Source of the DNA: Escherichia phage REP2
Direction: 5' to 3' (one strand)
Length of the DNA stretch: 64,000 bases
Sequence record: OQ174501.1
A model generated the notes under the pieces. The model was not told where the DNA came from and made no database searches. It was given only the letters and a program-made list of their open reading frames with translations. Positions 1 through 61,724 of this stretch are shown here, piece by piece. Made by a program: the position numbers and the translations under genes. Position 1 is the stretch's first letter, and the number at the start of each line of letters is the position of its first letter.

Positions 1-2
1 CT

Positions 3-155
3 AATATTGAAATCACTGGATACAACTGGTTCGGTTGCTCTGAAAATGATTTCCAACATACTGGATTTCGTGCTATTGGACCTACTGGGCAGAAAGTAGA
101 AGGAACCGTGTGTTCTGGTCTATTCTTCAAGGATTCGACTATCCGTTTTAAATAA
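3..155 (+). CDS. Hypothetical protein, C-terminal fragment (5' end outside window)
   Basis: Only frame open from the window edge to TAA at 153-155; sits immediately upstream of gene 39, where T4 has small 39.x ORFs. No start codon in window. Confidence 0.35.
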   Translation, partial: NIEITGYNWFGCSENDFQHTGFRAIGPTGQKVEGTVCSGLFFKDSTIRFK

Positions 156-180
156 AAGGCCTTCGGGCCTTTAGCTTTAT
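155..180 (+). terminator. Hairpin AAAGGCC-TTCG-GGCCTTT with weak T-rich tail
   Basis: Perfect 7-bp stem with TTCG loop directly after the upstream stop codon; tail TTAGCTTTAT is only moderately U-rich. Confidence 0.45.
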
Positions 181-224
181 GATTACCGGAGTATAATATT
201 CCCGAAACCAAACGAGGATAAGTG

Positions 225-2042
225 ATGATTAAGAATGAAATTAAAATTCTGAGCGATATTGAACATATCAAAAAGCGTAGCGGCATGTATATTGGCTCTT
301 CTGCTAATGAAATGCATGAGCGCTTTCTGTTTGGTAAATGGGAAAGTGTTCAGTATGTACCTGGTCTTGTTAAGCTTATTGATGAAATTATCGATAACTC
401 AGTAGATGAAGGTATTCGTACTAAGTTTAAATTCGCAAATAAAATTAATGTTACTATTAAAAACAATCAAGTAACAGTTGAAGATAACGGTCGCGGTATT
501 CCACAAGCGATGGTTAAAACACCTACCGGTGAAGAAATTCCTGGTCCTGTTGCTGCATGGACTATTCCAAAAGCAGGTGGTAACTTTGGTGATGATAAAG
601 AACGCGTCACTGGCGGTATGAATGGTGTTGGTTCTAGTTTGACAAACATTTTTTCTGTGATGTTTGTCGGTGAAACTGGTGATGGTCAAAATAATATTGT
701 AGTTCGTTGTTCAAATGGCATGGAAAATAAATCATGGGAAACTATTCCTGGAAAATGGAAAGGAACTCGTGTTACTTTCATTCCTGATTTTATGTCATTT
801 GAAACTAATGAGCTGTCCCAAGTTTATCTTGACATTACACTAGATCGTCTCCAGACACTTGCAGTAGTTTATCCTGATATTCAATTTACCTTTAATGGTA
901 AAAAGGTTCAGGGCAATTTTAAGAAATATGCACGCCAATATGATGAGCATGCTATTGTTCAAGAACAAGAAAATTGCTCTATTGCGGTTGGTCGTTCACC
1001 GGATGGTTTTCGTCAATTAACTTATGTGAATAACATTCACACTAAGAATGGTGGCCATCACATTGACTGTGTTATGGATGATATTTGTGAAGACCTTATT
1101 CCACAAATCAAACGTAAGTTCAAAATTGATGTGACTAAAGCACGCGTTAAAGAATGTTTGACTATCGTTATGTTTGTTCGTGATATGAAAAACATGCGAT
1201 TTGATTCTCAAACTAAAGAGCGTTTGACTTCTCCATTTGGTGAAATCCGTAGTCATATTCAGCTTGATGCTAAAAAGATTTCACGTGCTATTTTGAATAA
1301 TGAAGCAATTCTGATGCCAATTATTGAAGCTGCACTAGCTCGTAAATTGGCGGCGGAAAAGGCAGCAGAAACTAAAGCAGCTAAAAAGGCTTCTAAAGCT
1401 AAGGTTCATAAACATATTAAAGCGAATCTTTGTGGTAAAGATGCTGACACTACTCTTTTCTTGACTGAGGGTGATTCGGCTATCGGATATCTTATTGATG
1501 TTCGTGATAAAGAACTTCACGGTGGTTATCCATTGCGCGGTAAAGTTCTCAACAGTTGGGGTATGTCTTATGCAGATATGCTTAAAAACAAAGAACTATT
1601 TGATATTTGCGCAATCACTGGATTAGTTCTCGGTGAAAAAGCTGAAAACTTGAATTATCATAATATTGCTATTATGACTGATGCTGACCATGATGGTCTA
1701 GGAAGCATTTATCCTTCTCTGCTCGGATTTTTTAGTAATTGGCCAGAATTGTTTGAGCAAGGACGAATTCGCTTTGTCAAAACTCCTGTAATCATCGCTC
1801 AGGTCGGTAAAAAACAAGAATGGTTTTATACAGTCGCTGAATATGAGAGTGCCAAAGATGCTCTACCTAAACATAGCATCCGTTATATTAAAGGACTTGG
1901 CTCTTTGGAAAAATCTGAATATCGTGAGATGATTCAAAATCCAGTATATGATGTTGTTAAACTTCCTGAGAACTGGAAAGAGCTTTTTGAAATGCTCATG
2001 GGAGATAATGCTGACCTTCGTAAAGAATGGATGAGCCAGTAG
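225..2042 (+). CDS. 39: DNA topoisomerase II large subunit, fused gene 39/60 type (GyrB-like ATPase plus Toprim)
   Basis: Translation MIKNEIKILSDIEHIKKRSGMYIGS... matches T-even gp39 as recalled; 605 codons as a single ORF. ATG at 225 follows GAGGATAAG; the listed ORF start at 222 is a GTG. Confidence 0.9.
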   Translation: MIKNEIKILSDIEHIKKRSGMYIGSSANEMHERFLFGKWESVQYVPGLVKLIDEIIDNSVDEGIRTKFKFANKINVTIKNNQVTVEDNGRGIPQAMVKTPTGEEIPGPVAAWTIPKAGGNFGDDKERVTGGMNGVGSSLTNIFSVMFVGETGDGQNNIVVRCSNGMENKSWETIPGKWKGTRVTFIPDFMSFETNELSQVYLDITLDRLQTLAVVYPDIQFTFNGKKVQGNFKKYARQYDEHAIVQEQENCSIAVGRSPDGFRQLTYVNNIHTKNGGHHIDCVMDDICEDLIPQIKRKFKIDVTKARVKECLTIVMFVRDMKNMRFDSQTKERLTSPFGEIRSHIQLDAKKISRAILNNEAILMPIIEAALARKLAAEKAAETKAAKKASKAKVHKHIKANLCGKDADTTLFLTEGDSAIGYLIDVRDKELHGGYPLRGKVLNSWGMSYADMLKNKELFDICAITGLVLGEKAENLNYHNIAIMTDADHDGLGSIYPSLLGFFSNWPELFEQGRIRFVKTPVIIAQVGKKQEWFYTVAEYESAKDALPKHSIRYIKGLGSLEKSEYREMIQNPVYDVVKLPENWKELFEMLMGDNADLRKEWMSQ

Positions 2043-2071
2043 TTTACTTTACTACAAGGATGTGGTATAAT
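2042..2071 (+). promoter_or_regulatory. T4-type early promoter (GTTTAC -35, 18-nt spacer, TATAAT -10)
   Basis: GTTTAC at 2042-2047 and TGTGGTATAAT with TATAAT at 2066-2071; upstream of the rIIA.1-like ORF and rIIA. Confidence 0.55.
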
Positions 2072-2096
2072 TAATTGGGCAAATGAGGATATTGAA

Positions 2097-2300
2097 ATGA
2101 AATCATATAAAGTAAATTTAGAACTTTTTGATAAAGCAGTTCATCGAGAATATAGAATCATTCAACGCTTTTTCGATATGGGAGAAGCCGAAGAATTTAA
2201 AAACCGCTTTAAGGATATTAGAGATAAAATTCAATCCGACACTGCAACTAAAGATGAACTACTAGAAGTTGCTGAAGTTATTAAACGCAATATGAATTAA
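2097..2300 (+). CDS. Small hypothetical protein (rIIA.1 position)
   Basis: 67-codon ORF between gene 39 and rIIA with RBS GAGGA upstream. Confidence 0.5.
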
Positions 2301-2310
2301 TGAGGAAATT

Positions 2311-4488
2311 ATGATTATCACCACTGAAAAAGAAACAATTCTTGGCAATGGTTCTAAATCAAAAGCATTTAGCATCACAGCATCTCCTAAAGTATTTAAA
2401 ATTCTGTCATCTGATTTGTATACAAACAAGATTCGTGCAGTAGTCCGTGAATTAATTACTAATATGATTGATGCCCATGCACTTAATGGAAATCCTGAAA
2501 AATTTATCATACAAGTTCCAGGACGATTAGATCCGCGATTTGTTTGTCGAGATTTTGGTCCGGGTATGAGTGATTTTGATATTCAGGGTGATGATAATTC
2601 TCCTGGGTTATATAATTCATACTTCAGTTCATCTAAGGCTGAATCTAATGACTTTATTGGCGGGTTTGGTTTAGGTTCTAAATCTCCGTTTAGTTATACT
2701 GATACATTTAGTATTACTTCGTATCATAAAGGTGAAATTCGTGGTTATGTAGCTTACATGGATGGTGATGGTCCACAGATTAAACCTACATTCGTAAAAG
2801 AAATGGGTCCAGATGATAAAACTGGTATTGAAATCGTAGTTCCAGTTGAAGAAAAAGACTTTAGAAACTTTGCTTATGAAGTTTCTTATATCATGCGACC
2901 ATTCAAAGATTTGGCTATCATTAATGGTCTTGACCGCGAAATTGATTATTTTCCGGATTTTGATGACTATTACGGTGTAAATCCAGAAAGATACTGGCCT
3001 GATCGTGGTGGATTATATGCTATCTATGGCGGTATTGTTTATCCTATCGATGGTGTTATTAGAGACCGTAACTGGCTAAGCATTCGCAATGAAGTGAATT
3101 ACATTAAGTTTCCAATGGGTTCACTTGATATTGCTCCATCTCGCGAGGCTCTTTCACTGGATGATCGTACTCGTAAAAATATTATTGAACGAGTTAAAGA
3201 ACTCAGTGAGAAAGCATTTAATGAAGATGTAAAACGATTTAAAGAATCCACATCTCCCCGTCATACATATCGTGAATTGATGAAGATGGGGTATTCTGCT
3301 CGAGATTATATGATTAGTAATTCAGTCAAATTTACGACTAAAAATCTGTCATATAAGAAGATGCAAAGCATGTTTGAACCTGATAGTAAGTTATGCAATG
3401 CAGGAGTTGTGTATGAAGTAAATCTTGACCCTCGACTGAAGCGCATTAAGCAAAGTCATGAAACTTCAGCCGTTGCATCAAGTTATCGTCTGTTTGGTAT
3501 TAATGCAACAAAAATTAATATCGTTATTGATAATATTAAAAATCGTGTTAATATTGTCCGTGGATTAGCACATGCGTTAGATGATAGTGAATTTAATAAC
3601 ACTTTGAATATTCATCACAACGAACGCCTTCTGTTTATTAATCCAGAAGTAGAATCGCAGATTGATTTGCTTCCTGATATTATGGCGATGTTTGAAAGTG
3701 ATGAAGTTAACATTCATTATTTGTCAGAAATTGAAGCTTTAGTTAAAAGCTATATTCCAAAGGTAGTTAAAAGTAAAGCTCCTCGTCCTAAAGCTGCTAC
3801 AGCATTTAAGTTTGAAATTAAAGACGGGCGCTGGGAAAAAGAGGAATTATTTACGCTCACATCAGAAGCAGATGAAATTACTGGGTATGTAGCGTATATG
3901 CATCGTTCTGATATTTTCTCTATGGATGGTACTACATCTCTTTGTCATCCATCTATGAATATTTTGATTCGTATGGCTAATCTTATTGGCATTAATGAGT
4001 TTTATGTTATTCGTCCGCTTTTGCAGAAAAAGGTAAAAGAACTCGGTCAGTGCCAATGTATTTTTGAAACTCTGCGTGATTTATATGTAGATGCTTTTGA
4101 TGATGTAGATTATGATAAGTACGTAGGTTATTCAAGTTCAGCTCAACGATATATTGATAAAATTATCAAGTATCCTGAACTAGATTTTATGATGAAGTAC
4201 TTCAGTACAGATGAAGTTTCTGAAGAATATACACGACTCGCTAATATAGTTAGTTCATTGCGCGGTGTATATTTTAATGGTGGAAAAGATACCATCGGTC
4301 ATGACATCTGGACAGTAACTAATCTTTTTGATGTATTATCAAATAATGCTTCAAAAAACAGTGATAAAATGGTTGCTGAGTTTACCAAGAAATTCCGTAT
4401 TGTTTCCGACTTCATCGGATATCGCAACTCTTTAAGTGATGATGAAGTTTCTCAAATCGCTAAAACTATGAAGGCCCTTGCGGCCTAA
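2311..4488 (+). CDS. rIIA: rIIA protein (membrane-associated, GHKL-like ATPase fold)
   Basis: 725 codons, same length as T4 rIIA; N-terminal region has GHKL-like motifs ([10 protein letters not shown] ... DFGPGM ... GGFGLGSKS); position matches. Confidence 0.9.
4473..4485 (+). other. Intercistronic hairpin GGCC-CTTGC-GGCC at rIIA 3' end
   Basis: 4-bp GC stem overlapping the last rIIA codons, just upstream of the rIIB RBS. Confidence 0.3.
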
Positions 4489-4499
4489 TAAGGAAAATT

Positions 4500-5704: not shown

Positions 5705-6034
5705 ATGATTTATTGTATGAATATCGGTGACACCGACATAAAAGAAATTTCTCTACATGGTAATCATTACGCTAATATTGTGTACTGCAATAAATTCGAG
5801 TTTGGGCATGAAAAACTTGGAGTTCTTTACTGCAATGATGTTATAGTCATGGACAAAAAGAATCTCGATGAACTTGATCGTAATTCTTTAGATGAAAATG
5901 ATCGAATTTACTATGGTACTCTTAAAGTGTATAACGCTTATCTTAGTGGTAAAAAGGAAAGTTTAAATGCAGAAAACGAATCCGGGGTTACAGAGACTAT
6001 TTCAGATTCCGACATTTACCCTATCGAACAGTGA
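5705..6034 (+). CDS. Hypothetical protein
   Basis: 109-codon ORF; its 3' end overlaps the next ORF by 68 nt, so one of the two boundaries is uncertain. Confidence 0.4.
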   Translation: MIYCMNIGDTDIKEISLHGNHYANIVYCNKFEFGHEKLGVLYCNDVIVMDKKNLDELDRNSLDENDRIYYGTLKVYNAYLSGKKESLNAENESGVTETISDSDIYPIEQ

Positions 6035-8661: not shown

Positions 8662-9990
8662 ATGCAACTGAATAATCGTGATTTAAAAAGTATCATTGAT
8701 AATGAAGCATTGGCTTATGCTATGTACACGGTTGAAAATCGTGCTATCCCAAATATGATTGATGGATTTAAGCCAGTTCAACGATTTGTTATTGCTCGAG
8801 CTCTTGATTTGGCACGAGGAAATAAAGATAAGTTTCACAAACTCGCTTCTATTGCAGGTGGTGTAGCAGACCTTGGATATCATCATGGTGAAAACTCTGC
8901 ACAAGACGCAGGTGCTTTGATGGCTAATACTTGGAATAATAACTTTCCTCTGTTAGATGGTCAAGGAAACTTTGGTTCTCGTACCGTTCAAAAAGCAGCG
9001 GCAAGTCGTTATATTTTTGCTCGTGTAAGTAAAAATTTCTATAGCGTATATAAAGATACTGAATATGCTCCGGTACATCAAGATAAAGAACACATTCCGC
9101 CTGCTTTCTATTTGCCTATTATTCCTACTGTTCTTCTTAATGGTGTTTCCGGTATTGCAACTGGTTATGCAACTTATATTCTTCCTCATAGTGTTTCTTC
9201 TGTCAAGAAAGCTGTATTGCAAGCTCTTCAAGGAAAGAAAGTAACTAAACCGAAGGTAGAATTTCCAGAATTTCGCGGTGAAGTCGTTGAAATTGACGGT
9301 CAATATGAAATTCGTGGAACGTACAAGTTTACTTCACGAACTCAAATGCATATCACTGAGATTCCGTATAAGTATGATCGTGAAACTTACGTGAGCAAAA
9401 TTTTAGACCCGCTTGAAGATAAAGGCTTTATTACGTGGGATGATGCTTGCGGTGAGCATGGGTTTGGCTTTAAAGTTAAATTCCGTAAAGAATACTCTTT
9501 GAGCGATAACGAAGAAGAACGCCATGCAAAAATTATGAAAGACTTCGGGTTGATTGAGCGTCGTTCCCAGAATATTACCGTCATTAATGAGAAAGGAAAG
9601 CTGCAAGTTTACGATAATGTAGTTGATTTAATCAAAGACTTCGTTGAAGTTCGTAAAACTTATGTCCAAAAACGAATTGATAACAAAATCAAAGAAACTG
9701 AATCAGCATTTCGTTTAGCCTTTGCCAAGGCGCATTTCATTAAGAAAGTAATTTCAGGTGAAATTGTTGTGCAGGGTAAAACTCGCAAAGAACTGACCGA
9801 AGAACTTTCTAAAATTGATATGTATTCTTCTTATGTTGATAAACTAGTCGGAATGAATATTTTTCATATGACTTCCGACGAAGCAAAGAAACTTGCTGAA
9901 GAAGCTAAAGCTAAGAAAGAAGAAAACGAATATTGGAAAACTACTGATGTAGTTACCGAATACACTAAAGATTTAGAGGAAATCAAATGA
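8662..9990 (+). CDS. 52: DNA topoisomerase II medium subunit (GyrA-like)
   Basis: 442 codons, same as T4 gp52; N-terminal region resembles the GyrA breakage-reunion domain. Confidence 0.9.
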   Translation: MQLNNRDLKSIIDNEALAYAMYTVENRAIPNMIDGFKPVQRFVIARALDLARGNKDKFHKLASIAGGVADLGYHHGENSAQDAGALMANTWNNNFPLLDGQGNFGSRTVQKAAASRYIFARVSKNFYSVYKDTEYAPVHQDKEHIPPAFYLPIIPTVLLNGVSGIATGYATYILPHSVSSVKKAVLQALQGKKVTKPKVEFPEFRGEVVEIDGQYEIRGTYKFTSRTQMHITEIPYKYDRETYVSKILDPLEDKGFITWDDACGEHGFGFKVKFRKEYSLSDNEEERHAKIMKDFGLIERRSQNITVINEKGKLQVYDNVVDLIKDFVEVRKTYVQKRIDNKIKETESAFRLAFAKAHFIKKVISGEIVVQGKTRKELTEELSKIDMYSSYVDKLVGMNIFHMTSDEAKKLAEEAKAKKEENEYWKTTDVVTEYTKDLEEIK

Positions 9991-13991: not shown

Positions 13992-14021
13992 AGACCCTCC
14001 TTTTAAGGGTATTTATTCACA

Positions 14022-14804
14022 TTATACTCTTGGACCATATATTGCTCCAACATTTTGCCATGTTGGAGCGGACCCTATGACAGCATAACCAGCAGCACCG
14101 CCATCATATTCAGATCCTTGACCGCGAATATTGCATCTACCTCCCGCGGAACCTACTTCACCACCGTTTCCGCCATTATAGATACCATTCACGGATCCTG
14201 AGCCAGGTGCAGAAATAGTACCACCAGTCGCGCCTGATTGCATATCAATAGATCCGCCTGGCGCACCAAAAGGACGACCGCCACCGCCGCCAAAGGTCAA
14301 TCTCATTTGTGAAAAAGGAGAATAATATCCGCCGCCACCGCCACCGCCGCCGCCTGCAATAGCTCCGCCATTATTAATTCTTAGTCTCCCACCAATATCG
14401 TTTTGAATACAATGACCCCCAGCTGAGCCAGGACTATTGCTACCACCATTACCTCCACGACCATACATCGTTACGCCATGTATATTTAACTGAACATATT
14501 CATTTGGTGTATCTCCGTACATGAAGAATAAAGGAACATCTTTAGAATATGATACTAAATCACCTGTAATATTAAACACTATAGGTGCACTACCGGCCTC
14601 AAAACATCTATCTCGGAACCATTGACCATTGAAGTTATGGTCTGCTCCAAGTGTATGAATAATTTCTCGTGAGCGACCTGCAAATTGACTCATCCAGCAA
14701 GGAACACCCAATCTTAATTGACCAGCCGCTTGACTCATCCATCGTTGCCCTGTTTCATTTGCGGCTGAACTTCCAATCCAACCAGGAACACCAACTACTG
14801 CCAT
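14022..14804 (-). CDS. 38: T2-type receptor-recognising adhesin gp38 with glycine-rich motifs
   Basis: 260 codons with poly-Gly runs ([24 protein letters not shown]) separating variable segments, as in T2/K3/Ox2-type gp38; immediately downstream of gene 37. Confidence 0.8.
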
Positions 14805-14816
14805 AATTTATCTCCA

Positions 14817-14835
14817 AAGGGGGCGTTGCCCCCTT
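14817..14835 (-). other. Intercistronic hairpin AAGGGGGC-GTT-GCCCCCTT between genes 37 and 38
   Basis: Perfect 8-bp palindrome with 3-nt loop, directly upstream of the gene 38 SD (GGAG) on the minus strand. Confidence 0.55.
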
Positions 14836-14839
14836 GTTG

Positions 14840-17785
14840 TTAGAATTTAAAATATTTACTAATTTTGCGAGCAATTTTAGTAAAGAAAGGAGTTTTCAAT
14901 TCTTTAATTTCTTCACTCATTTCCTGAATAGCCTTAATTAAAAGAGCATTCACAGCAGAGTTAGAAATTGTCAGAACATCAGATCCATCAACTTCAACTT
15001 TAGATACAGCTTCCGGTAATTCCTTTTCAAGGTCCTGAGCAATAATACCAACTTCACGTTTAATAACGCTACGGTCTTTAATAGACTTAACTTTATCGTA
15101 AATATAAACTTTCAGTCGGCATACTTTTTCGACTGCTCCATATTCTAATTCTTCTTTATTAATCTTGAGACGGGAGTCAGAACGAATATACACATCGCTA
15201 AAGCTACCATTTCCTGGTGTATAAAAGAATCCATCATGATGGAATTCAAACACAGCTTGTGGGTGTCCAGCATCAGGAGAAGCCTCCGTGGATCCGACAC
15301 GAATGATTGCTTGCCCCCACTGTGATGGAATACGACGCATACCAAAGTCAACAGCGGTGCTATATCCTTGATTGGTTATAACGCTTCTTGCTTTAAGAAT
15401 AGGATAATAACAATCCTGTGAAACATAACCATGATCAACGAATAATGGAGCTTCTACTCGCCATTGGTTGCCCCAATCACCCGGTTGTCTAGCAATCCAT
15501 CCAGAACCGTTAATGTGTACACGGTCGCGGTTAACGTTAACCATTGCGGTATTTTGCGGGTTTAACGCAATCTCACCATTGTTTGTGATATGTACTGCCG
15601 CCTGAGAAGCATAGCTATAAAATGCTAGCGAATTATCAGCACCACCCTTGCCAATATACCAGTTACCAGTCCCGTCTATGTCACCGCGAATATGCAAAGA
15701 ATTACTAGCAGTTGTTGATAATACAATAGAATCATTAGGTGCATTGATTGTTAACCGACCTGTCATCGTATCACCGCCTTTACCTACGCGAGTATTCAAG
15801 GCAGCATCTAAATTTGTCGCATTGTTATATTTCTTCCAGATTGAACCGGCAATATTACCATCTGTATTAAGGAACGCATCACCGACATATACACGTCCTG
15901 GAGATTTAAAATAACCTGACGGCATGAAAGTCCATTGTTTTAACCCATCTGCTGTTCCATTAGCGGATAAATCACCCTGAGCAATGATCTTATATTCGGA
16001 TGTACCTATAGCCATACCAGTGGCAAAGGTGATATTACTTACAGTATTTTTCTGTTTAACAATTGGCGCAAACTGGTTTTTATTTGAATCGTCAATAGCC
16101 TGATATAATGGCGCAATGGTAGTATTCTGATTTGCGTAAGTATTAGAACCAGAACCGCTAGCAGGGGCTTGAATATATGCTCCTGGAGCAAGTGAAATTT
16201 TCTGATTAGCACCAAGATTAACAGCAGCAGTGATATTCAGCAATCCCCTAAAGTTTTGTTGAGCAGTCCAAGTATGTGATCCGTCTTCAAGAACAACACG
16301 GCGACAAGTATTAGTCCTACTTCCTGGATTACCAGCGATACGAACAACGAAATAACGGTAGTTTGTCTGGGATACAGTACCGCGCCAAACCTGAACAGTA
16401 CGCCCTGTGCCAGTGTGTTCGCTAGGACCAACGGAAAACATAACCAAGTTTCCGTCAATCGTCCCCCAATCCATATTTGCTGGCATGTTCTTTATTTTGT
16501 TCAAAGGAACGCTAAACATACTACCAGGAACAAAATCAAAGGTTTGCCAATCTAACTCCGCTAATTGAGCTTTAATACCACCCATACCCAAAGTAATTGG
16601 CAGAGAGTAAGATGTATATACTTCGTTCCATGCACCCCACGCACCACCAGTATATGCACGCTCAAAAATACGTCCGCGAGTAGTTGCGCCTGTTCCGGCA
16701 GTAGTAAATTTTTGGAAAATAGCACCACCAGAAGCACGCTGTTTAACTTCCAGCAAACCAACAATAACAGGCGGCAAACCTTCACCTGTAGGGCAGTTAA
16801 TAACGGCATCGGTGCCTAAAATATTATATAACCCAGGAGTTTTAAAATCATTAAGGTCACCATCATAGAAAGTCGCTGGTGTGCCATGACCAACCTGCTT
16901 CCATTCCTCCCACTTAGGTGCACTAGCATCCCATGCAGCAGCGAGACAACGAGTATAAACCATACCCATGCGGGTAGTATAACGCTGAGTTCTCGTGTAT
17001 AAACCACCTTCAAATATTTCTAAAAATCCTTGTGCGGCTGATCCTTCTTCTGGATAATGGCGATCAAATGATGCGATTGCGCTTGAACTGTTTCGCCATA
17101 AGCCACAATGTTCTAATTCTCCCAAGCTATCAAGGTCAATCGTTTGTGAAAGTGGACGAGTTGACGCTTGAACATTACGCCACACACCCCATGGACCATC
17201 GACGCCATTCCATTTAGCAGATAAGGAACGAATATAGACGTTACCAGATCTTACAGTATAACGCTGAGTGCCAGCAAATTGGCCGGCCACAAACACTTCT
17301 AGTACACCTACGGCATTTTCTTCTGGGAATTTATTTGCTGGTTGCGCATTTGTTGAAGTAGATTTCGACCAAACACCAAGATATTCTTCAATGGGCCCAT
17401 ACGTATCTAAATTAGCATCAGTAGGTAATTCGCCATTATTTTTTATAAATGTTGTGCTATTGACATTTATGTCAGATGGAGTTAAGGTAATGTCTTTTGA
17501 CCCATCAAAAGATATACCATTAATTTTCCTAGGTGTTTGCAATTTAGTAGCTGTGCTAGAATTTCCAATTAAAGTTCCAGTTATATTTTCTGTAACCTCT
17601 AAAGACCCATTTATAGTTCCTCCATATTTTAAACCTAATTCTATAACACTACCTGAGTCATCTTTTGTGAAAATTGTTTTATCTTTTAAGTTTATAGCCA
17701 ATTCACCTTCGGCTAATACTGAAGCAGCAGGACGTTGACCTGCAGTTTTGCTTCTTTTAAATTGTATTTGTTTTAAAGTAGCCAT
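14840..17785 (-). CDS. 37: Long tail fibre distal subunit gp37 with C-terminal intramolecular-chaperone-like domain
   Basis: 981 codons between genes 36 and 38; C-terminal ~115 residues carry a ...[18 protein letters not shown]... motif resembling the autocleavage region of S74-type intramolecular chaperone domains. Confidence 0.85.
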
Positions 17786-19630: not shown

Positions 19631-22600
19631 TTATTCAATCCACTCAAATTTAACAGTTTTATTCACTGGGTCAGGAATAATGCGAACATTACCAATTCGC
19701 AAGAAATCGCGAATAGTAAGATTACCTATTATTCCATTATCAGATGGGATCGCTCCTATATCTGAAGGTTGAGGAGGGTTACCTCCGTCAAATACCTGAA
19801 CAAAACTTGACCAAGAGTTTTTGGTTTTCTGCCATGTACGTGTCCAGCGAGTGGTACGTGCTTCTGGGGTCGTTGGATAAGTAATCCAATCTTGGTAAAG
19901 TGAATCAAGTGTGTTACCAAACTGAGTCAATGTACCAGGAGATTTAACTTCTTCACCACGTTCTAAGTATGGAAGTCCAGTCACTTCATTAGTTTTTTCA
20001 ACCATTTTAAAATAACCCGGGAACTGGTTATAAGTGGCTGAATCATTAATATCGATTGACCAGAATCCTACTGTATCAGATGTTGGCGCACGGGTATATA
20101 AATCAGAGGTTTTAGTACCCTGAGAACGAATTCTCGAGTTAACAGTCAAACCACCCGAACTTATAGTAGCACCTTTTGCAATGATTAAGCTTTCACCAAT
20201 CGTTACTTGGCCAGATGCATTATTAATAGCTAAAGGACGCAATCCATTAAATCCGCCAGTCTGATCACCCGATGCAGTAAGCATAAAATTCGTTACTGAC
20301 CCGTCATTGCGAACAATGAAACCATAATTTCCGCTAATAGCACGGAAAGCATTTGCGCTTCGAGAAATAATTTCACCAGTTGCAGTGACTGAATTACCAA
20401 ATGTTGCTACACCATTTGCATTCAATGTTCCTGAAGCATTAACATTTATCGGTGTTACTGTACCGTTGATATTAAATGTTATATTTCCAGCTTTATTACG
20501 CTGAGAATAAAAATGACTAGACGTTTCATCACTAACTTCAAATACGGTAGAACGTGTTGTGTCTGATTCCCCACTAAATTGATTTCCCCACACTCTGACT
20601 GTCATCGTTTGAGCTGGGTTTGTTCCAGTTTGAGGTCCTTTCTCAAAAATCAGACGAGTTGCCGTTCCAGTATTAGAAATAGTTAATGTACTATTTGCTG
20701 AAACTGATCCACCGAATGTAGCAGTACTAGATGATACAAGAGGGGCACTCAGATTCGTTTGTTGGGTTAAGGTTAGTGAACCATTAACTGTTTGTGCAAT
20801 ATCCCTACGAATGAACTGGAGCGAATCTAGACCATCTAATAAATTACTATCTACAGCTTTTGCTTTTAATGGCAAATAATTTGCTAATACGCGATTTAAT
20901 TCATATGGTGATACTGCATAACCATTTTTCTCATATGATTCTAATGGCTGTGTTGAACCTACCGTATCATTACCAACGAATGTAATTGAACCAGATGAAG
21001 TTTTAACAAAACCTCTTATCGCAGTAGTCGCTGCCCAAGTAGGTTCACTCTGCACAATCCATTTTAAATTTTTTGGAGATACAGCAGTATTTGCTGACGT
21101 TCCAGCTACAGTTTCAGACCGAGTTGCAACTTTAATAACGCCTTCCTGTGCTTCAGTAGATTTAGTACCTAAAAGCTTTTTAGGAGTTATTAGAACATTA
21201 TCTAATGTTCCTGCAGCAGCTTCAACTTGTGTAGCTACACGAAGTGTACCACGCTGTGTCTCATTTGCTTCAAGAATATTAAGGGTATAATGGTCCCAGA
21301 GAGTTCCTGATTCAACTAATCCAGATAGAGCAACAACAGAAGTACGATCAGTACTATTAAATCTGGTTTTAATTTTTAATGGTGTAGAGATACGAGTATC
21401 GTCGACGCCTGCGTCGAATTCAACCTGTGTAGCAATTTCAGCTATACCACTTAAACTTTCAGTTGCTCTACGGTCATTTAAAGTTTTAGGAGTGACTGCA
21501 CGAGTATAATCAGTTCCTGTATTAACTTCACTTTGTGTAGCAATTTCAATTAAACCAATTCTTGCATCAGTTGATGTCTTTTTATGTAACGTTTCTGGCG
21601 TTACAACCGCATTTGCCCATCCTTCTTGGCTTTGTCCAGCAATTACTTCACTTTCAACTGCTAAAATTACTGCGCCTTGTTGCGTTGGAGTAGCTTTATA
21701 CTGATCCAAAGCTTTAGGTGAAACAACTAAATTATTAGTGTTTTTATTATAAACATTCGTACCATTTAATTCACGACTAGAAGCTGGAGTAGCTCCTGCG
21801 GTAGATACAAAAGTTACAATACCAGATAATGATTCAGAACCTTGACGAGCTTGAAGCTTTTTAGGAGTGATGATTGTAGTATCATCAGTACCTGTATTAG
21901 TTTCCTGCTGCGTAGCAATTTCAGCGACACCTCTACGAGTTTCTGTAGCAGTTCTTTCATTCAGCTTTTTAGGAGTGATGATAAGGTCATCTGCAAAAGA
22001 GAATGTAGTGTTCTGATTTACTTGAGCAGTAGTTGCTATTCTTGCAATACCTCTGCGAGTTTCAGTAGCAGTACGATTAGCTAACGTTTCTGGAGTAATT
22101 GCCAATTCTTTTTGCGGAGAATTTTCTAAATCAGCATTTGCTTGAGCTTGTGTAGCTAAAGCAATTACGCCTAATCTTGCTCTAGTAGAATTATTTAAAG
22201 AATCGACTCTTTCAACTGTTGGAACGTTTTGCTGTACAACCCAGTATTTTCCATCAGAATCTTCTATATAAGCAAGTTGCAAAACTGGTACATAATTAGT
22301 TTCACCATTAAAAACTAATTCTTGAACTGTTACCCATTCAGCTTCAGGCGGATATTCTGAACGTTTTGGAAATTGCAGCAATTGAACTGAAGAAGCAATT
22401 TTATCTTCACCGGCAGCTTTGATTTTAACTGTTTGTCCTTTTCTCATATAATTCATGGAAATCTTAACAGTATCACCGATAGAAATATCAGTTGGAAGCT
22501 GAAGTTCAATCGTTTGAGTTGTTCCATTATTCGCGCCAAATACCATGACTTCTTCATTTGGACGAATATTAGAATTAGTCGTTATAATGCGTAAACGTGC

Positions 22601-25116: not shown

Positions 25117-25766
25117 TTAAACTCCGCATGCCTGCTGGTGGTGAAAGATATATTGATGGTAAATCAGTTTATAAATTATACTTAATGATAAAACAACATA
25201 TGAATGGAAAGTATGATGTAATTAAGTATAATTGGTGCATGCGGGTGTCTGATGCCGCTTATCAAAAGCGAAGGGATAAGTATTTTTTCCAGAAGTTATC
25301 AGAAAAATATAAATTAAAGGAACTTGCTTTAATCTTTATAAGCAATCTGGTTGCTAACCAAGATGCTTGGATTGGTGACATCTCTGACGCTGATGCACTT
25401 GTGTTTTATCGTGAATATATCGGACGCTTAAAGCAAATTAAATTTAAGTTTGAAGAAGATATTCGCAACATTTATTATTTTAGTAAAAAAGTTGAAGTTT
25501 CTGCTTTTAAAGAAATCTTTGAGTATAATCCAAAAGTTCAGTCGAGTTATATTTTTAAACTACTTCAATCGAATATAATTTCGTTTGAGACGTTTATCTT
25601 GCTTGATTCGTTTTTAAATATAATCGATAAACATGATGAACAGACTGATAATTTAGTTTGGAACAATTATTCTATAAAGTTAAAAGCTTATAGAAAAATT
25701 TTAAATATTGATTCACAGAAAGCTAAAAATGTTTTCATTGAAACTGTGAAATCTTGCAAGTATTAA
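25113..25766 (+). CDS. 59: Helicase loader gp59
   Basis: 217 codons as in T4 gp59; ATGA overlap with gene 33. Confidence 0.9.
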   Translation: MIKLRMPAGGERYIDGKSVYKLYLMIKQHMNGKYDVIKYNWCMRVSDAAYQKRRDKYFFQKLSEKYKLKELALIFISNLVANQDAWIGDISDADALVFYREYIGRLKQIKFKFEEDIRNIYYFSKKVEVSAFKEIFEYNPKVQSSYIFKLLQSNIISFETFILLDSFLNIIDKHDEQTDNLVWNNYSIKLKAYRKILNIDSQKAKNVFIETVKSCKY

Positions 25767-25774
25767 TTGCTTAT

Positions 25775-25782
25775 TATAAATA
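25775..25782 (+). promoter_or_regulatory. Late promoter TATAAATA upstream of gene 32, with possible overlapping MotA box
   Basis: Exact TATAAATA; TTGCTTAT at 25767-25774 and TATAAT at 25786-25791 could form a middle promoter. Confidence 0.45.
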
Positions 25783-25799
25783 GATTATAATTATCTCAC

Positions 25800-25865
25800 T
25801 GACCAGCTATGAGGTCATACATCGTCATAGCACCAACTGTTAATTAAATTAAAAAGGAAATAAAA
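25800..25865 (+). promoter_or_regulatory. Gene 32 translational operator (pseudoknot plus unstructured A/T-rich leader)
   Basis: TGACC...GGTCA and GCTATGA...TCATAGC interleaved (H-type pseudoknot, 25800-25831), followed by TTAATTAAATTAAAAAGGAAATAAAA up to the ATG. Confidence 0.7.
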
Positions 25866-27952: not shown

Positions 27953-28296
27953 ATGTCTGACATTCATGTAACTGGAATTTCTCAAGTAAAAATTCGTTGC
28001 CAACTTAAAACCGCGCCTGGGACGGCTTTTATTAATTTATCACACGACATAGATTCCCGTGAAAGCCAGTTAATGGGTGTAATTACATTTTACGCTGGAT
28101 TTGGCGGAAACAAATTTACTGTAGGGGAAATTGTCGGCCGTAAATTAAAAGTTCAGAAGAACGTGTTAGAACTTTTTAATGATCTTTACGATGATAGTGA
28201 TGAAGTTTTTGATGAAATCGCACAAGCAGTTAACAGAGGAATGGTAACTTTAGTTAAAATGATTGACGCTAGCGGATATGCTCATGACTCTTTTCA

Positions 28297-28312
<16 letters not shown>
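27953..28312 (+). CDS. Hypothetical protein (119 aa)
   Basis: ORF with RBS GAGGAAAA. Confidence 0.5.
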
Positions 28313-29138
<826 letters not shown>

Positions 29139-29157: not shown

Positions 29158-29505
29158 ATGAATTTTAATTATTACCCTATTCTATTAGAAAAAGACGAGA
29201 AACAGCCAAAGTGGCAGGGTCCTCAGTTTATTAAAGGTGTCTATCAATTAGTAGTTCCTAAAGACAAGATTTATAGCAGTTGTTTCACTGAATCCGCTTG
29301 CAGTATTTTCGGTAATAGTTCTCCATATTGGAATTTTGACATAAAGCTGGATAGAAATATCGATATTTGGTTGAAAGCTATGGATATTGGTAATATCACG
29401 TTTGATGAGAATAATTATCATATTATTGGTCGCTTTTCCAAACGCGGTAAAGAATTATATTTCACGCCTGAAATTGAGAGAAAATTTGATGCTAAACCGT
29501 ATTGA
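29158..29505 (+). CDS. Hypothetical protein (115 aa) inserted between frd and td
   Basis: ORF with RBS GGCGGAAAT; in T4, as I recall, td follows frd directly. Confidence 0.45.
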   Translation: MNFNYYPILLEKDEKQPKWQGPQFIKGVYQLVVPKDKIYSSCFTESACSIFGNSSPYWNFDIKLDRNIDIWLKAMDIGNITFDENNYHIIGRFSKRGKELYFTPEIERKFDAKPY

Positions 29506-29550: not shown

Positions 29551-30411
29551 ATGAAACAATACCAAGATTTAATTAAAGACATTTTTGAAAATGGCTATGA
29601 AACCGATGACCGAACGGGCACAGGAACAATTGCTCTGTTCGGTACTAAATTGCGTTGGGATTTAACTAAAGGCTTTCCTGCAGTAACAACTAAAAAGCTC
29701 GCCTGGAATGCATGCATTGCTGAGCTAATATGGTTTTTATCAGGAAGCACAAATGTCAATGATTTACGATTAATTCAACATGATTCATTAATTCAAGGCA
29801 AAACAGTCTGGGATGAAAATTACGAAAATCAAGCAAAAGATTTAGGATACCATAGTGGTGAACTTGGTCCAATTTATGGAAAACAGTGGCGTGATTTTGG
29901 CGGTGTAGACCAAATTATAGAAGTTATTGATCGTATTAAAAAACTGCCAAATGATAGGCGTCAAATTGTTTCTGCATGGAATCCAGCTGAACTTAAATAT
30001 ATGGCATTACCGCCTTGTCATATGTTCTATCAGTTTAATGTGCGTAATGGCTATTTGGATTTGCAGTGGTATCAACGTTCGGTAGATGTTTTCCTCGGTC
30101 TTCCATTTAATATTGCATCATATGCTACGTTAGTTCATATTGTAGCTAAAATGTGTAATCTTATTCCTGGAGATTTGATATTTTCTGGTGGTAATACTCA
30201 TATCTATATGAATCACGTAGAACAATGTAAAGAAATTTTACGTCGTGAACCTATGGATTTATGCGAATTACAATTAAAATTTCCAGATGAATTTGATGAA
30301 TGGGACACAGAATCGCAGGTATTTTGGTTGAGTCAATTTGCAAAGCCTCATAATTTTGTTCTTAACAACTATGAATCACATCCTCCTATTAAAGGAAAGA
30401 TGGCGGTGTAA
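29551..30411 (+). CDS. td: Thymidylate synthase (uninterrupted, no intron)
   Basis: 286 codons as a single ORF, equal to the spliced T4 TS length; conserved TS motifs (RTGTGT, active-site PPCH). Confidence 0.9.
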
Positions 30412-30695: not shown

Positions 30696-30975
30696 ATACA
30701 AATCCGACTTTGATGTTAATATTCACCGCGGTACATTTTGGGGAAATTACGTCGGTAAAGATGCTGGCAGCCGAGAGGCTGCCATTGAATTATTCAAAAA
30801 AGATTTTATACGTCGAATTAAATCCGGAGAAATAACTAAAGCACATTTAGAGCCTTTACGTGGAATGAGGCTAGGATGCACATGTAAACCAAAGCCGTGT
30901 CATGGTGATATAATAGCTCATATAGTTAACCGATTGTTTAAAGACGATTTTCAAGTTGAGGACTTATGCAATTAA
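30649..30975 (+). CDS. DUF4326-like protein (108 aa)
   Basis: Motifs FWGNYVG...RE.A...F and [20 protein letters not shown] match the DUF4326 signature as I recall it; overlaps the previous ORF by 47 nt, so its start is uncertain. Confidence 0.4.
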
Positions 30976-32399
30976 TTAATGTTATCAAAAGTAGTGGTGT
31001 TTCTCAGAGCTTTGACCCGCAAAAAATTATTAAAGTTTTATCTTGGGCAGCTGAAGGAACATCTGTAGATCCTTATGAATTATATGAAAATATTAAATCA
31101 TATCTCCGTGATGGAATGACCACTGATGACATTCAGACTATTGTCATTAAGGCTGCTGCGAATTCTATTTCAGTTGAAGAGCCTGATTATCAATACGTAG
31201 CTGCACGCTGTTTAATGTTTGCTCTTCGTAAGCATGTTTACGGGCAATATGAACCACGTTCATTTATTGACCATATTTCTTACTGTGTAAATGAAGGTAA
31301 ATATGACCCCGAATTATTGTCAAAATATTCAGCAGAAGAAATTACATTTTTAGAATCAAAAATTAAGCACGAACGGGATATGGAATTTACTTATTCCGGG
31401 GCGATGCAATTAAAAGAAAAATATCTAGTTAAAGATAAAACCACTGGTCAAATTTATGAAACTCCACAGTTTGCATTTATGACTATTGGAATGGCATTGC
31501 ATCAAGATGAACCTGTTGATAGATTAAAACATGTTATTCGTTTTTATGAAGCAGTATCTACTCGACAGATTTCACTGCCAACTCCTATTATGGCTGGTTG
31601 CCGTACTCCGACTCGACAGTTCAGTTCATGCGTTGTTATTGAGGCAGGAGATTCATTGAAGTCTATCAATAAGGCTTCCGCTTCGATTGTTGAATATATC
31701 TCTAAACGCGCTGGAATTGGTATTAACGTTGGTATGATTCGTGCTGAAGGTTCTAAGATTGGCATGGGTGAAGTACGCCATACTGGTGTTATTCCTTTTT
31801 GGAAACATTTTCAGACTGCAGTTAAATCATGTTCACAGGGTGGAATTCGTGGCGGCGCTGCTACTGCTTATTATCCTATTTGGCATTTGGAAGTTGAAAA
31901 TCTTCTTGTTTTGAAAAATAACAAAGGCGTAGAAGAAAACCGCATTCGTCATATGGATTATGGTGTTCAACTGAATGATTTGATGATGGAACGTTTTGGA
32001 AAGAACGATTACATTACTTTGTTCAGTCCCCATGAAATGGGCGGAGAGCTTTATTATTCTTATTTTAAAGACCAAGACCGTTTCCGTGAATTGTATGAAG
32101 CCGCAGAAAAAGACCCTAATATTCGTAAAAAGCGTATTAAAGCTCGTGAACTATTTGAATTGCTCATGACTGAACGCTCAGGAACAGCAAGGATTTATGT
32201 ACAGTTCATTGATAATACGAATAACTATACTCCATTTATTCGTGAAAAGGCACCTATTCGTCAGAGTAACTTGTGCTGTGAAATTGCTATTCCAACAAAT
32301 GACGTGAATAGCCAACAAACCCGTTTAATCAAAATTAAGAAGTCGGATGTAGCTAAGTTTTATGAAGCTAATCCTGGCGGTATAATTCAAAGCAAATAA
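30966..32399 (+). CDS. nrdA: Ribonucleotide reductase alpha subunit, N-terminal piece (477 aa), truncated by insertion
   Basis: ATP-cone N-terminus and class I core up to the active-site segment SNLCCEIAIPTNDVN; then 29 unrelated codons and a stop. Confidence 0.85.
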   Translation: MQLINVIKSSGVSQSFDPQKIIKVLSWAAEGTSVDPYELYENIKSYLRDGMTTDDIQTIVIKAAANSISVEEPDYQYVAARCLMFALRKHVYGQYEPRSFIDHISYCVNEGKYDPELLSKYSAEEITFLESKIKHERDMEFTYSGAMQLKEKYLVKDKTTGQIYETPQFAFMTIGMALHQDEPVDRLKHVIRFYEAVSTRQISLPTPIMAGCRTPTRQFSSCVVIEAGDSLKSINKASASIVEYISKRAGIGINVGMIRAEGSKIGMGEVRHTGVIPFWKHFQTAVKSCSQGGIRGGAATAYYPIWHLEVENLLVLKNNKGVEENRIRHMDYGVQLNDLMMERFGKNDYITLFSPHEMGGELYYSYFKDQDRFRELYEAAEKDPNIRKKRIKARELFELLMTERSGTARIYVQFIDNTNNYTPFIREKAPIRQSNLCCEIAIPTNDVNSQQTRLIKIKKSDVAKFYEANPGGIIQSK

Positions 32400-33150
32400 A
32401 GTACACAGACCGTTAATAAATAATCCATAACAAGAGGAAAAGTTATGGATTATTCTAAAATTTACAATAACCTTATTTCTAAAGCTAAGAACAGAAAATT
32501 AGATTGCTATACCGAATCACACCATATTATACCTCTGTGTATTGGTGGTTCTGATACAAAGGAAAACCTGGTAGATTTGACACCCGAAGAGCATTACATA
32601 GCTCATCAATTATTAGTAAAGATATATCCAGATAATCATAAATTGGTATTTGCCGCTAATATGATGTGTGTTTATTCTGAAGATAATATTGAACGAAAGA
32701 ACACCAATAAACGCCATGGGTGGCTTAGAAGAAAATTGGCTATTTCTGTATCTGAAAATAATAAAGGCAAACCAGCTTGGAACAAAGGTATTCCGGTAAC
32801 TGACGAGCATAGAGAAAAACTTCAAACAACTTGGGTATTTACTTTCCCGGACGGTCATGAAGAAATCCATAAAGGCCTAAGAGAATTTTGCGAACTACAT
32901 TCACTCAATGCTTCGGCAATGTCGGCCGTATGCAAAGGCAAAAGGTCTCAACATAAAGGCTTTAAGTGTCGAAAGCTTGATAATATCTCTGAAAACGATA
33001 ATCAAGAATACGTCAGTAAACCTCATCCAAAGGGATTAAAACCCCATAACTTAATTGCTGTAAAAATAAACGGTATAGAATATCAATCAATACATCGAGC
33101 ATCTAAAGCTCTAGGAATATCTCGAAAAAAGGTAGAAGAATTAAATGAAT
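32310..33150 (+). mobile_element. Homing-endonuclease gene insertion splitting nrdA (about 0.84 kb)
   Basis: Segment between the last conserved NrdA codon (about 32309) and resumption of NrdA-like sequence (about 33151) carries only a free-standing HNH endonuclease ORF. Confidence 0.5.
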
Positions 33151-33155
33151 ATTGA
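32445..33155 (+). CDS. HNH homing endonuclease (Mob-like, HNH plus NUMOD/HTH modules)
   Basis: N-terminal HNH motif (ESHHIIPLCIGGSDTKENLVDLTPEEHYIAH), NUMOD3-like KPAWNKGIPVTDEHREKL, C-terminal HTH-like segment; own RBS AAGAGGAAAAG. Confidence 0.8.
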   Translation: MDYSKIYNNLISKAKNRKLDCYTESHHIIPLCIGGSDTKENLVDLTPEEHYIAHQLLVKIYPDNHKLVFAANMMCVYSEDNIERKNTNKRHGWLRRKLAISVSENNKGKPAWNKGIPVTDEHREKLQTTWVFTFPDGHEEIHKGLREFCELHSLNASAMSAVCKGKRSQHKGFKCRKLDNISENDNQEYVSKPHPKGLKPHNLIAVKINGIEYQSIHRASKALGISRKKVEELNEY

Positions 33156-34134
33156 TTATGAATTTGTAGATGAATTTTACGAAGATGATGAGTATACAAC
33201 AATACAAGTTATTGAAAACAAAGGTGAAGTGGGCCTCTGTACTCTCTCTGCATTCGTACTGGATAATTTTGACTGGCAAGACCAAGATAAAATTAATGAA
33301 TTGGCAGAAGTCCAGGTTCGTGCTCTTGATAATCTTTTGGATTACCAAGGATATCCAGTTCCTGAAGCAGAAAAAGCTAAAAAGCGTCGTAACCTCGGTG
33401 TAGGTGTTACTAACTATGCAGCTTGGTTGGCAAGTAACTTTGCTTCTTATGAAGATGCTAACGATTTAACACATGAACTATTTGAGAGATTACAGTATGG
33501 ACTCATTAAAGCATCCATTAAACTCGCCAAAGAAAAAGGACCTTGTGAATATTATTCAGACACTCGTTGGTCTCGAGGCGAATTACCTATCGACTGGTAC
33601 AATAAAAAGATTGACCAAATCGCAGCTCCAAAATACGTTTGTGACTGGTCGTCGCTGCGGGAAGACCTTAAGCTCTTTGGCATCCGTAATAGCACATTAT
33701 CAGCACTTATGCCATGTGAGTCATCTTCCCAAGTTTCTAACAGTACAAACGGTATCGAGCCTCCACGTGGACCAGTCTCTGTTAAAGAATCAAAAGAGGG
33801 CTCCTTTAATCAAGTCGTGCCCAATATTGAGCATAACATAGACCTTTATGATTATACATGGAAATTAGCTAAGAAAGGTAATAAACCTTATCTTACGCAG
33901 GTAGCTATTATGCTGAAATGGGTTTGTCAATCAGCTTCGGCGAATACATACTATGACCCCCAAATCTTCCCTAAAGGCAAGGTTCCAATGTCAATAATGA
34001 TTGATGACCTTTTGTATTTCTGGTATTTTGGCGGAAAAAATTTCTATTATCATAATACCCGTGACGGTTCTGGTACTGATGATTATGAAATAGAAACTCC
34101 AAAAGCTGAAGATTGTTCATCCTGTAAATTATGA
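33145..34134 (+). CDS. nrdA: Ribonucleotide reductase alpha subunit, C-terminal piece (329 aa)
   Basis: Begins MNIDYEFVDEF... and continues with GEVGLCTLSAF and the conserved C-terminal CxxC tail; ATG overlaps the endonuclease stop. Confidence 0.85.
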   Translation: MNIDYEFVDEFYEDDEYTTIQVIENKGEVGLCTLSAFVLDNFDWQDQDKINELAEVQVRALDNLLDYQGYPVPEAEKAKKRRNLGVGVTNYAAWLASNFASYEDANDLTHELFERLQYGLIKASIKLAKEKGPCEYYSDTRWSRGELPIDWYNKKIDQIAAPKYVCDWSSLREDLKLFGIRNSTLSALMPCESSSQVSNSTNGIEPPRGPVSVKESKEGSFNQVVPNIEHNIDLYDYTWKLAKKGNKPYLTQVAIMLKWVCQSASANTYYDPQIFPKGKVPMSIMIDDLLYFWYFGGKNFYYHNTRDGSGTDDYEIETPKAEDCSSCKL

Positions 34135-34185
34135 TATAATTTGACTCACGGACGAGTCACCAACTATTAACTAAGCGGAAAATTT

Positions 34186-38410: not shown

Positions 38411-38414
<4 letters not shown>
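38184..38414 (+). CDS. Hypothetical protein (76 aa)
   Basis: ORF with ATGA overlap to its neighbour. Confidence 0.45.
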
Positions 38415-39632
<1,218 letters not shown>

Positions 39633-40362: not shown

Positions 40363-40890
40363 ATGAGCGAATGGTTTGAAGAAGATAAGGTTTATCGCTT
40401 TAAAACTGGGTATAAAGATATTTTTAATGAAACTTGCGGGGCTAATAAACGAATTGCCCAGTTTATTGGGGAAAATTCATTTAAAGTAAAAATAGATCCT
40501 GCGAAAAATGTTATTAGCATTAAACGTGAAATTGATGATTGTTGGTATAAAGCTGTTGATGTAATGGGTGAATCCTATAAAGTTAGCCCGTTATTTTCAA
40601 TTGCTTATATGTTAGAATATTCTTTTTTCGAAGAAGTTCAAAAAGATGATTCTGTAAGTAAATTTGAAATTAAAACTGATAAAGAAATTAAGTGGAAAGT
40701 AGTAGGTATTACTGGTTGTATGTTCTATATCTATGCTCAAACTGATACGAAGGAAGAAGCTAAAAAGAAAGCTCTAGAATATCTTGAAGAGCATGAAGAA
40801 GGTCCGGTAATGATTACCCAAGATGCTGAATTAGTTTCTGTCAAATTAGTTAAAAATGTTGAAAGTAAGGAGCTAGGATCAACATGCTAA
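40363..40890 (+). CDS. Hypothetical protein (175 aa)
   Basis: ORF with RBS ACGAGGAAA. Confidence 0.5.
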   Translation: MSEWFEEDKVYRFKTGYKDIFNETCGANKRIAQFIGENSFKVKIDPAKNVISIKREIDDCWYKAVDVMGESYKVSPLFSIAYMLEYSFFEEVQKDDSVSKFEIKTDKEIKWKVVGITGCMFYIYAQTDTKEEAKKKALEYLEEHEEGPVMITQDAELVSVKLVKNVESKELGSTC

Positions 40891-50762: not shown

Positions 50763-50765
50763 ATC

Positions 50766-61440: not shown

Positions 61441-61474
61441 GGCCCTTCCTTTTTGGTTGGGCCTTTTTTAATTT
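61441..61474 (+). terminator. Terminator-like hairpin GGCCC...GGGCC followed by TTTTTTAATTT
   Basis: 5-bp GC stem with a long loop and a strong T-run, between convergent ORFs. Confidence 0.45.
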
Positions 61475-61715: not shown

Positions 61716-61724
61716 AGGGCCGAA

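Follow-up and report, generated by a model that had tools for sequence, protein, structure and literature searches.

Gene 39 is a single ORF followed by rIIA.1 and rIIA

Positions 225-2042 of the window, i.e. of the whole 64,000-nt stretch of phage DNA that was analyzed, form a single ORF on the plus strand, with 605 sense codons running from an ATG at 225 to a TAG at 2040-2042. It is the first of the three consecutive genes at this locus, which, together with the gene for the partner subunit and two short sequence elements, are listed below.

214-218, + strand: Shine-Dalgarno-like GAGGA read from the sequence, 6 nt upstream of ATG 225 (putative function)
225-2042, + strand: gene 39, unsplit T2/T6 type, encoding the topoisomerase II large subunit, 605 aa (ORF, REP3 CDS, Pfam, PHROG 543, PDB 8ylu_C)
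2043-2071, + strand: promoter-like site TTTACT-17-TATAAT with TG, 10/12 matches, between gene 39 and rIIA.1 (consensus match only)
2097-2300, + strand: rIIA.1, 67 aa (Pfam T4_RIIA1, E 1.4e-33; collinear with T4 rIIA.1)
2311-4488, + strand: rIIA, 725 aa (REP3 annotation; collinear with T4 rIIA, ∼97-98%)
8662-9990, + strand: gene 52, encoding the GyrA-like partner subunit of the two-subunit topoisomerase II, 442 aa (440 of 442 residues identical to T4 gp52)

The automatic ORF listing opens gene 39 at GTG 222. We prefer ATG 225 as the real start because the N terminus shared by the T4 and T2 proteins (MIKNEIKIL) is reproduced and GAGGA lies 6 nt upstream. Escherichia phage REP3 (OQ174502.1), a Tequatrovirus from river water in the USA according to its record, is 100% identical to the window over the first 6 kb, and its record contains a "DNA topoisomerase II large subunit" CDS with exactly the coordinates of the window ORF. 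The ORF reading and this CDS agree with the first-pass annotation, made from the letters alone, that one 605-codon ORF runs here without interruption. At the base composition of the window (35.6% GC, stop-codon probability 0.073), the probability of 605 consecutive sense codons arising by chance is ∼1e-20. The same annotation had placed an rIIA.1-like ORF and then rIIA directly downstream, and this is the order found, with a gap of 54 nt between gene 39 and rIIA.1.

A promoter/terminator consensus scan of window positions 1-2400 returned 6 sites, against 9.1 expected from shuffled sequence, and only the 10-of-12 promoter-like site at 2043-2071 is noteworthy among them. In the same scan, a GC-rich UUCG hairpin upstream of gene 39 (∼156-171) gave no terminator call.

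Both TOPRIM acidic motifs lie on one polypeptide

Pfam scores the gene 39 product above its curated cut-offs for HATPase_c (E 1.9e-9), the GHKL ATPase domain, and for DNA_gyraseB (E 1.5e-13), the transducer or second GyrB domain; TOPRIM_C spans residues 519-604. Two matches cover the protein from end to end. PHROG 543 spans residues 1-605 (E 1.6e-295), and PDB 8ylu_C aligns 1-605 to 1-605 with a score of 1388 bits; 8ylu and related cryo-EM entries correspond to T6 gp39, as identified from PMC11461880. The two acidic motifs of the TOPRIM domain could be located individually.

1464-1481, + strand: TOPRIM acidic motif TEGDSA, aa 414-419 (on gp39 in T4)
1680-1697, + strand: TOPRIM DxDxD motif DADHDG, aa 486-491 (on gp60 in T4)

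In the window both motifs are thus carried by one polypeptide. In T4, TEGDSA is on gp39 and DADHDG is on gp60, and the metal-binding site is therefore divided between two chains; a preprint on MobA likewise describes a key metal-binding site as being split by MobA (bioRxiv 10.1101/2022.08.31.505936).

T2 and T6 have a topoisomerase built of two subunits, which for T6 has been established both structurally and enzymatically: gp39 together with gp52 carries out ATP-dependent DNA relaxation (PMC11461880). By extension, the 605-residue chain described here, with its GHKL ATPase, transducer, and complete TOPRIM, would pair with gp52 to give a two-subunit type IIA topoisomerase. Judging from the T6 work and from 99.7% identity to T2 gp39, the REP3 enzyme is probably active and probably has the same two-subunit stoichiometry.

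The T4 cassette and bypass are absent from gene 39

The T4 reference locus that we used for comparison comprises rIIA, rIIA.1, 60 with its annotated 50-nt bypass, 60.1, mobA, and 39. The window protein matches the two T4 products without gaps: its residues 1-473 are 98.3% identical to residues 1-473 of gp39, and its residues 472-605, within the C-terminal 160 residues that the first-pass annotation had proposed to align with gp60, are 95.5% identical to gp60 27-160. In the nucleotide alignment, window 1-1642 pairs with T4 5552-3911 and window 1707-4499 with T4 2793-1. The shared coding sequence is thus 95-98% identical at the protein level and the flanks are collinear (39.1-like upstream; rIIA.1 and rIIA downstream), whereas what lies between the two aligned blocks differs in size and content.

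1643-1706, + strand: 64-nt "parental" segment, facing 1,117 nt in T4 (collinearity); contains the MobA nick/homing site according to published T2 work
1695-1700, + strand: Gly491 GGT and Leu492 CTA, contiguous codons, corresponding to T4 gene 60 codons 46/47, the site of the T4 50-nt gap

The 1,117 nt of T4 hold a 43-aa gp39 tail, mobA/60.1, a gp60 head of ∼26-28 aa, a recoded homR, and the 50-nt gap, and the window is without all of these. The 111 codons that come next after the 64-nt segment are 99.4% identical to T4. In the alignment, the last 43 residues of T4 gp39 and residues 1-26 of gp60 have no counterpart in the gene 39 protein, and tblastn found no match to gp60.1 or to the 43-aa gp39 tail anywhere in the 64-kb window. 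Neither an HNH endonuclease gene (mobA) nor a pseudogene was found between the topoisomerase halves, where there are only 64 nt. The sole tblastn match to MobA fragments in the window is an HNH motif shared with an endonuclease encoded within nrdA, described below.

The bypass elements are missing as well. In T4, the 50-nt gap comes with a GGA take-off codon, a UAG, a hairpin, and a GGA landing codon, an arrangement that is absent from the window gene. The codons around the take-off position are GAT GGT CTA GGA AGC (D-G-L-G-S) in the window, with GGT directly followed by CTA, and in T4 they are GAT GGA, then the 50-nt gap, then TTA GGT TCT. GGATAG, a UAG after Gly491, the hairpin, and 12-mers of the T4 gap were all sought in window gene 39, and none was found. 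The claim that this locus has neither the gene 60 bypass nor mobA is therefore borne out: 64 nt stand where T4 has 1,117 nt, with no component of the cassette among them.

The unsplit gene is the majority form

To place this arrangement among relatives, we used the INPHARED phage collection as census, with window 1400-1950 as the junction query. The contiguous, i.e. fused, junction is present in 454 records. T2 is among them, as is RB14, whose gene is annotated "60plus39". The T4 cassette is found in 41-43 records, and T4 isolates or partial T4 entries make up about a third of these. Fused gene 39 is thus the majority state, in roughly 90% of sequenced relatives.

Gene 39 is almost certainly a T2/T6-type allele that never received MobA

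T2 gene 39 (AP018813) is likewise 1,818 nt long and encodes 605 aa, 603 of which are identical in the window protein. The only substitutions are F70L and T173D; nucleotide divergence is ∼3.5% and is concentrated mid-gene. The 64-nt segment at 1643-1706 agrees with T2 at every position (100%), and its identity to the homR carried by the T4 insert is only 62%. According to the preprint, a 64-nt region of the "parental" Topo2L is deleted on MobA insertion, the homR of the insert is recoded, and T2 is nicked by MobA within the 64-nt segment (bioRxiv 10.1101/2022.08.31.505936). The recoded homR, which is 67-81% identical to the parental sequence, is not present in the window, where the segment is of the T2 parental type.

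Identity to T2 extends beyond this segment, over a tract of 296 nt (window 1632-1927) that encloses it. Special conservation of the MobA site was considered and rejected, the identity of the 64 nt being merely part of this longer tract, which therefore reflects mosaic relatedness to T2 and not a site-specific constraint.

These observations lead us to conclude, with near certainty, that window 225-2042 is an uninterrupted gene 39 allele of the T2/T6 type that never received the MobA cassette. Indeed, because the 64 nt are those of T2 and there is no take-off site, gap, or tail remnant, the gene is best read as a naive parental allele, not as the product of re-fusion or of an artefact. Each of these two alternatives would account for a single ORF in a different way.

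In a secondary re-fusion ("hit and run"), the MobA cassette would once have split the gene and later been excised. Such a history has been put forward to explain one clade of Aeromonas phages (bioRxiv 10.1101/2022.08.31.505936), and homing elements are often gained and lost among Tequatroviruses. The re-fused Topo2L of these phages (clade 7 of the preprint) is, as in the window, a single ORF without endonuclease or bypass. However, it has an insertion encoding tail-/head-like sequence at the MobA site, and the window has none. More generally, reported re-fused genes keep in-frame sequence derived from the tail and head, whereas the window protein is exactly 605 aa, aligns without gaps to its T2 and T6 counterparts, and contains nothing that matches the gp39 tail or residues 1-26 of gp60. 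A 64-nt segment wholly of the T2 parental type, at 62% identity to the insert-borne homR, also speaks against re-fusion, which we consider highly improbable. Even less credit is due to an artefact or cryptic recoding, in which a collapsed insert, a polished frameshift, or a hidden bypass or frameshift signal would only make the gene look intact. No supporting evidence for it was found in gene 39. An open run of 605 codons with a chance probability of ∼1e-20, end-to-end collinearity with the independently sequenced T2 gene (two aa differences) and with the T6 protein, whose structure is solved, and the same contiguous junction in 454 independent records argue against an assembly or sequencing error, and gene 39 contains no GGATAG, in-frame stop, or T4-gap 12-mer that could point to recoding. 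With no remnant, gap sequence, or take-off site in evidence, hit-and-run re-fusion and cryptic bypass were both rejected.

Loss of the cassette by recombination with a naive phage would leave the same present-day allele as never having had the element, the two histories being formally indistinguishable.

A naive T2/T6-type allele, our preferred reading, has a corollary for homing. Since the sequence reported to be nicked by MobA in T2 is kept base for base in the window, the phage is predicted to be susceptible to MobA and would become a recipient of the cassette when co-infecting with a MobA-positive phage.

As to which form is older, the T4 gene was split by insertion of mobA (PMC2988022; bioRxiv 10.1101/2022.08.31.505936). 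Bacterial ParE and GyrB and the N-terminal halves of the eukaryotic enzymes (human TOP2A/B) share Pfam domains and domain order with the gene 39 product and align with it in a single stretch over the T4 split point. They are distant sequence relatives, longer than the phage protein, which has gp52 as its partner. Their continuous alignment supports the unsplit form as the ancestral one. The presumption that the locus shows the ancestral arrangement is thus supported by the T2 parental 64 nt, by these alignments, and by the literature on the insertion.

Other selfish elements in the window differ from those of T4

We used a collinearity map of the window against T4 to find segments present in T4 only. 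They are given below as the length in T4 and the length of the facing segment in the window.

mobA cassette: T4 1,117 nt; window 64 nt
segG: T4 626 nt; window 38 nt
td intron region: T4 1,023 nt; window 6 nt
mobE plus nrdB.1: T4 700 nt; window 55 nt
nrdB intron region: T4 747 nt; window 161 nt
segE: T4 638 nt; window 22 nt

In agreement with this map, td is a single ORF of 286 aa, in which residues 1-183 and 184-286 flank the position of the 1,017-nt intron of T4, and nrdB is a single ORF of 392 aa, likewise flanking the position of the ∼598-nt T4 intron. The arithmetic of the map and the intact ORFs together confirm that td and nrdB have no intron. A group I intron scan with Rfam at gathering thresholds gave 0 hits in the window, but it also gave 0 hits in a T4 td-nrdB control with two known introns and so does not bear on these calls. 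No homologs of SegD, SegE, SegG, I-TevI, or I-TevIII were found in the window by tblastn. mobE is missing from its T4 site in the window, and segE and segG are the seg genes missing inside it. The first-pass annotation had also listed segD as missing. This is true of the parent genome, in which the gap between genes 23 and 24 is 83 nt and segD is absent. It is not, however, something that can be read from the window, since the T4 locus of segD (between genes 23 and 24, T4 106.5-107.2 kb) is outside it, position 64000 corresponding to T4 111,298, inside hoc. The map upholds the broader statement that the complement of selfish elements differs from that of T4.

The frequency of each element was determined in the same phage collection, counting records with at least 80% query coverage.

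td intron: 197 records
nrdB intron: 118 records
segD: 53 records
mobA cassette: 41 records
nrdA-internal endonuclease: 34 records (of 509 related)
reference T4 mobE ORF: 21 records; 140 match in part

This survey, which the first-pass annotation had suggested for mobA, mobE, segD, and the introns, reveals a patchwork. At these frequencies, a complement of selfish elements unlike that of T4 is the rule. Titles in the reference list of PMC2988022 indicate that reports of T-even phages differing in their introns go back to 1987.

nrdA is split by an HNH endonuclease

The first-pass annotation had stated that nrdA, for its part, has gained an element. This proved correct, the element being an HNH endonuclease gene within a 924-nt insert.

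30966-32399: nrdA N piece, 477 aa (T4 NrdA residues 1-454)
32314-33237: 924-nt insert in nrdA
32445-33155: HNH endonuclease ORF inside nrdA, 236 aa (PHROG 655 homing endonuclease, E 2.8e-60)
33145-34134: nrdA C piece, 329 aa (T4 NrdA residues 452-754)

The endonuclease is 46% identical to T4 MobE, over the N-terminal half, and its ORF overlaps the downstream nrdA piece. The split partitions the active-site cysteines: Cys222 and Cys438 fall to the N piece, Cys457 to the C piece. Each piece has a charged tail: that of the N piece, at its C terminus, is 23 aa long and basic (pI 9.7), and that of the C piece, at its N terminus, is 26 aa long and acidic (pI 4.1). The insert is 100% identical in phage HY01, which also carries MobA.

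An nrdA "in pieces", split by mobE, is known from phage Aeh1, with the same partition of cysteines, basic C-terminal and acidic N-terminal tails, and an ORF overlap (PMC3045599). Aeh1 is an Aeromonas phage whereas the window belongs to a Tequatrovirus, and the likeness of the tails is one of charge. A pI of 3.8 is given for the NrdA-b tail of Aeh1 (PMC3045599). Reassembly of split NrdA into an active reductase has been shown for Aeh1 only (PMC3045599). One could speculate that the MobE-like element within nrdA transposed there independently from its usual site between nrdA and nrdB and that the tails are convergent, a scenario that we regard as rather doubtful. If it were true, genes split by homing endonucleases would have in charged tails a general and recurrent means of rescue; cases of charged-tail rescue are mentioned, only as unpublished, in the preprint (bioRxiv 10.1101/2022.08.31.505936).

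The same genome is thus naive at the topoisomerase locus and yet has an nrdA split in the manner of Aeh1.

Comparison with known systems

The unsplit gene 39 is a correct observation of an already known form, which is the majority and ancestral one, and the split-and-bypass arrangement of T4 is the derived exception. Indeed, for T2 and T6 an unsplit gene 39 is textbook knowledge that goes back decades. Being a naive allele of the T2 type, gene 39 itself leaves no room for a novel reading. The importance of the finding as a discovery is therefore little. The distribution of homing endonucleases and introns among T-even phages, well documented as a patchwork, gains one more data point from it, and it has two practical uses of modest value. 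For annotators, it means that gene 60, mobA, and the bypass are not to be expected in most T4-like genomes. For experimenters, REP3 could provide a natural MobA-naive recipient, with a homing site identical in sequence to that of T2, for use in homing crosses.

Both loci have their counterparts in described phages. An nrdA interrupted by a MobE-like HNH endonuclease gene, as in Aeh1, has already been described. At the topoisomerase locus, the gene order 39 - rIIA.1 - rIIA and the partner protein gp52 are common to T2/T6 and the window.

Homing-endonuclease sites left empty relative to T4

None of segE, segG or mobE (with nrdB.1) is present at the corresponding T4 loci in the window, where only short intergenic stretches separate the flanking genes:

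63232-63253, segE site, 22 nt left between flanking genes
25765-25802, segG site, 38 nt left between flanking genes
34131-34185, mobE/nrdB.1 site, 55 nt left between flanking genes

These three absences were not listed in the first-pass annotation. In T4, segD lies between genes 23 and 24, a locus that falls beyond the window. In the record of the identical parent genome, REP3, the two genes are separated by an 83-nt gap (20458-20540), indicating that segD is absent from the parent genome.

Uneven divergence around the empty intron sites of td and nrdB

Both td and nrdB have empty intron sites, across which divergence from T4 is strongly uneven:

29551-30411, td, intron site empty
34186-35364, nrdB, intron site empty

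Protein identity to T4 is 98.9% for the part of td corresponding to exon 1 and 74% for that corresponding to exon 2, and the respective values for nrdB are 85% and 98.8%. Such unevenness has the appearance of a mosaic or of co-conversion tracts flanking the homing sites. An Rfam scan at the gathering threshold misses the ORF-containing group I introns of td and nrdB in T4 itself (L004 33500-41500, the td-nrdB region), and a negative Rfam result is therefore no basis for calling T-even genes intron-less.

Gene 39 and the mobA cassette

Within the unsplit gene 39, a 296-nt tract (1632-1927) is identical to T2 and the rest of the gene is 96.5% identical, with differences concentrated at gene nt 600-1440. 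Such clustering suggests a recombination mosaic. The mobA cassette is 1,117 nt long in reference T4 (L001, the T4 reference locus, 2794-3910) vs 1,106 nt in T4T, RB55, RB59 and other T4 records. The 11-nt excess is consistent with a mobA pseudogene (60.1 plus a mobA fragment) restricted to the reference T4 strain.

Other segments differing from T4

Several further segments differ from T4, as follows (the Alt-like and helicase genes are as annotated in REP3):

48669-52823, - strand, two tandem full-length Alt-like ADP-ribosyltransferase genes
61729-63240 and 61473-61703, - strand, pair of CDSs labelled "DNA helicase", uvsW locus
5705-6034, 27953-28554, 29158-29505, 38411-38731 and 40363-40890, + strand, small ORFs in T4-absent segments

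Whereas T4 carries alt and the short remnants alt.-1 and alt.-2, the window has two full-length Alt-like genes, and ∼1.7 kb at this locus (51114-52803) is without a T4 counterpart. At the uvsW locus, the T4 RefSeq record contains a single 1,764-nt gene, with a note on sequence discrepancies, whereas two adjacent CDSs are annotated in REP3 (61473-63240). Around genes 37 and 38 in the distal tail-fibre region, ∼3.6 kb (14017-17630) gave no megablast match to T4, consistent with an adhesin type different from that of T4. Every one of the small ORFs matches a PHROG family of unknown function, and none contains a homing-endonuclease domain.

A split nrdA resembling that of Aeh1

The nrdA gene (30966-34134, + strand) is in two pieces, interrupted by a MobE-like HNH homing endonuclease:

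30966-32399, + strand, nrdA N-terminal piece (ORF)
32445-33155, + strand, MobE-like HNH endonuclease inside nrdA (ORF)
33145-34134, + strand, nrdA C-terminal piece (ORF)

The endonuclease ORF overlaps the downstream nrdA piece by 11 nt. Active-site cysteines are partitioned between the two pieces, which bear a basic tail of 23 aa (N-terminal piece) and an acidic tail of 26 aa (C-terminal piece). Of 509 related phage records, 34 contain the insert; the copy in HY01, a phage that also carries MobA, is 100% identical. In layout, the split resembles the "genes-in-pieces" nrdA of phage Aeh1.
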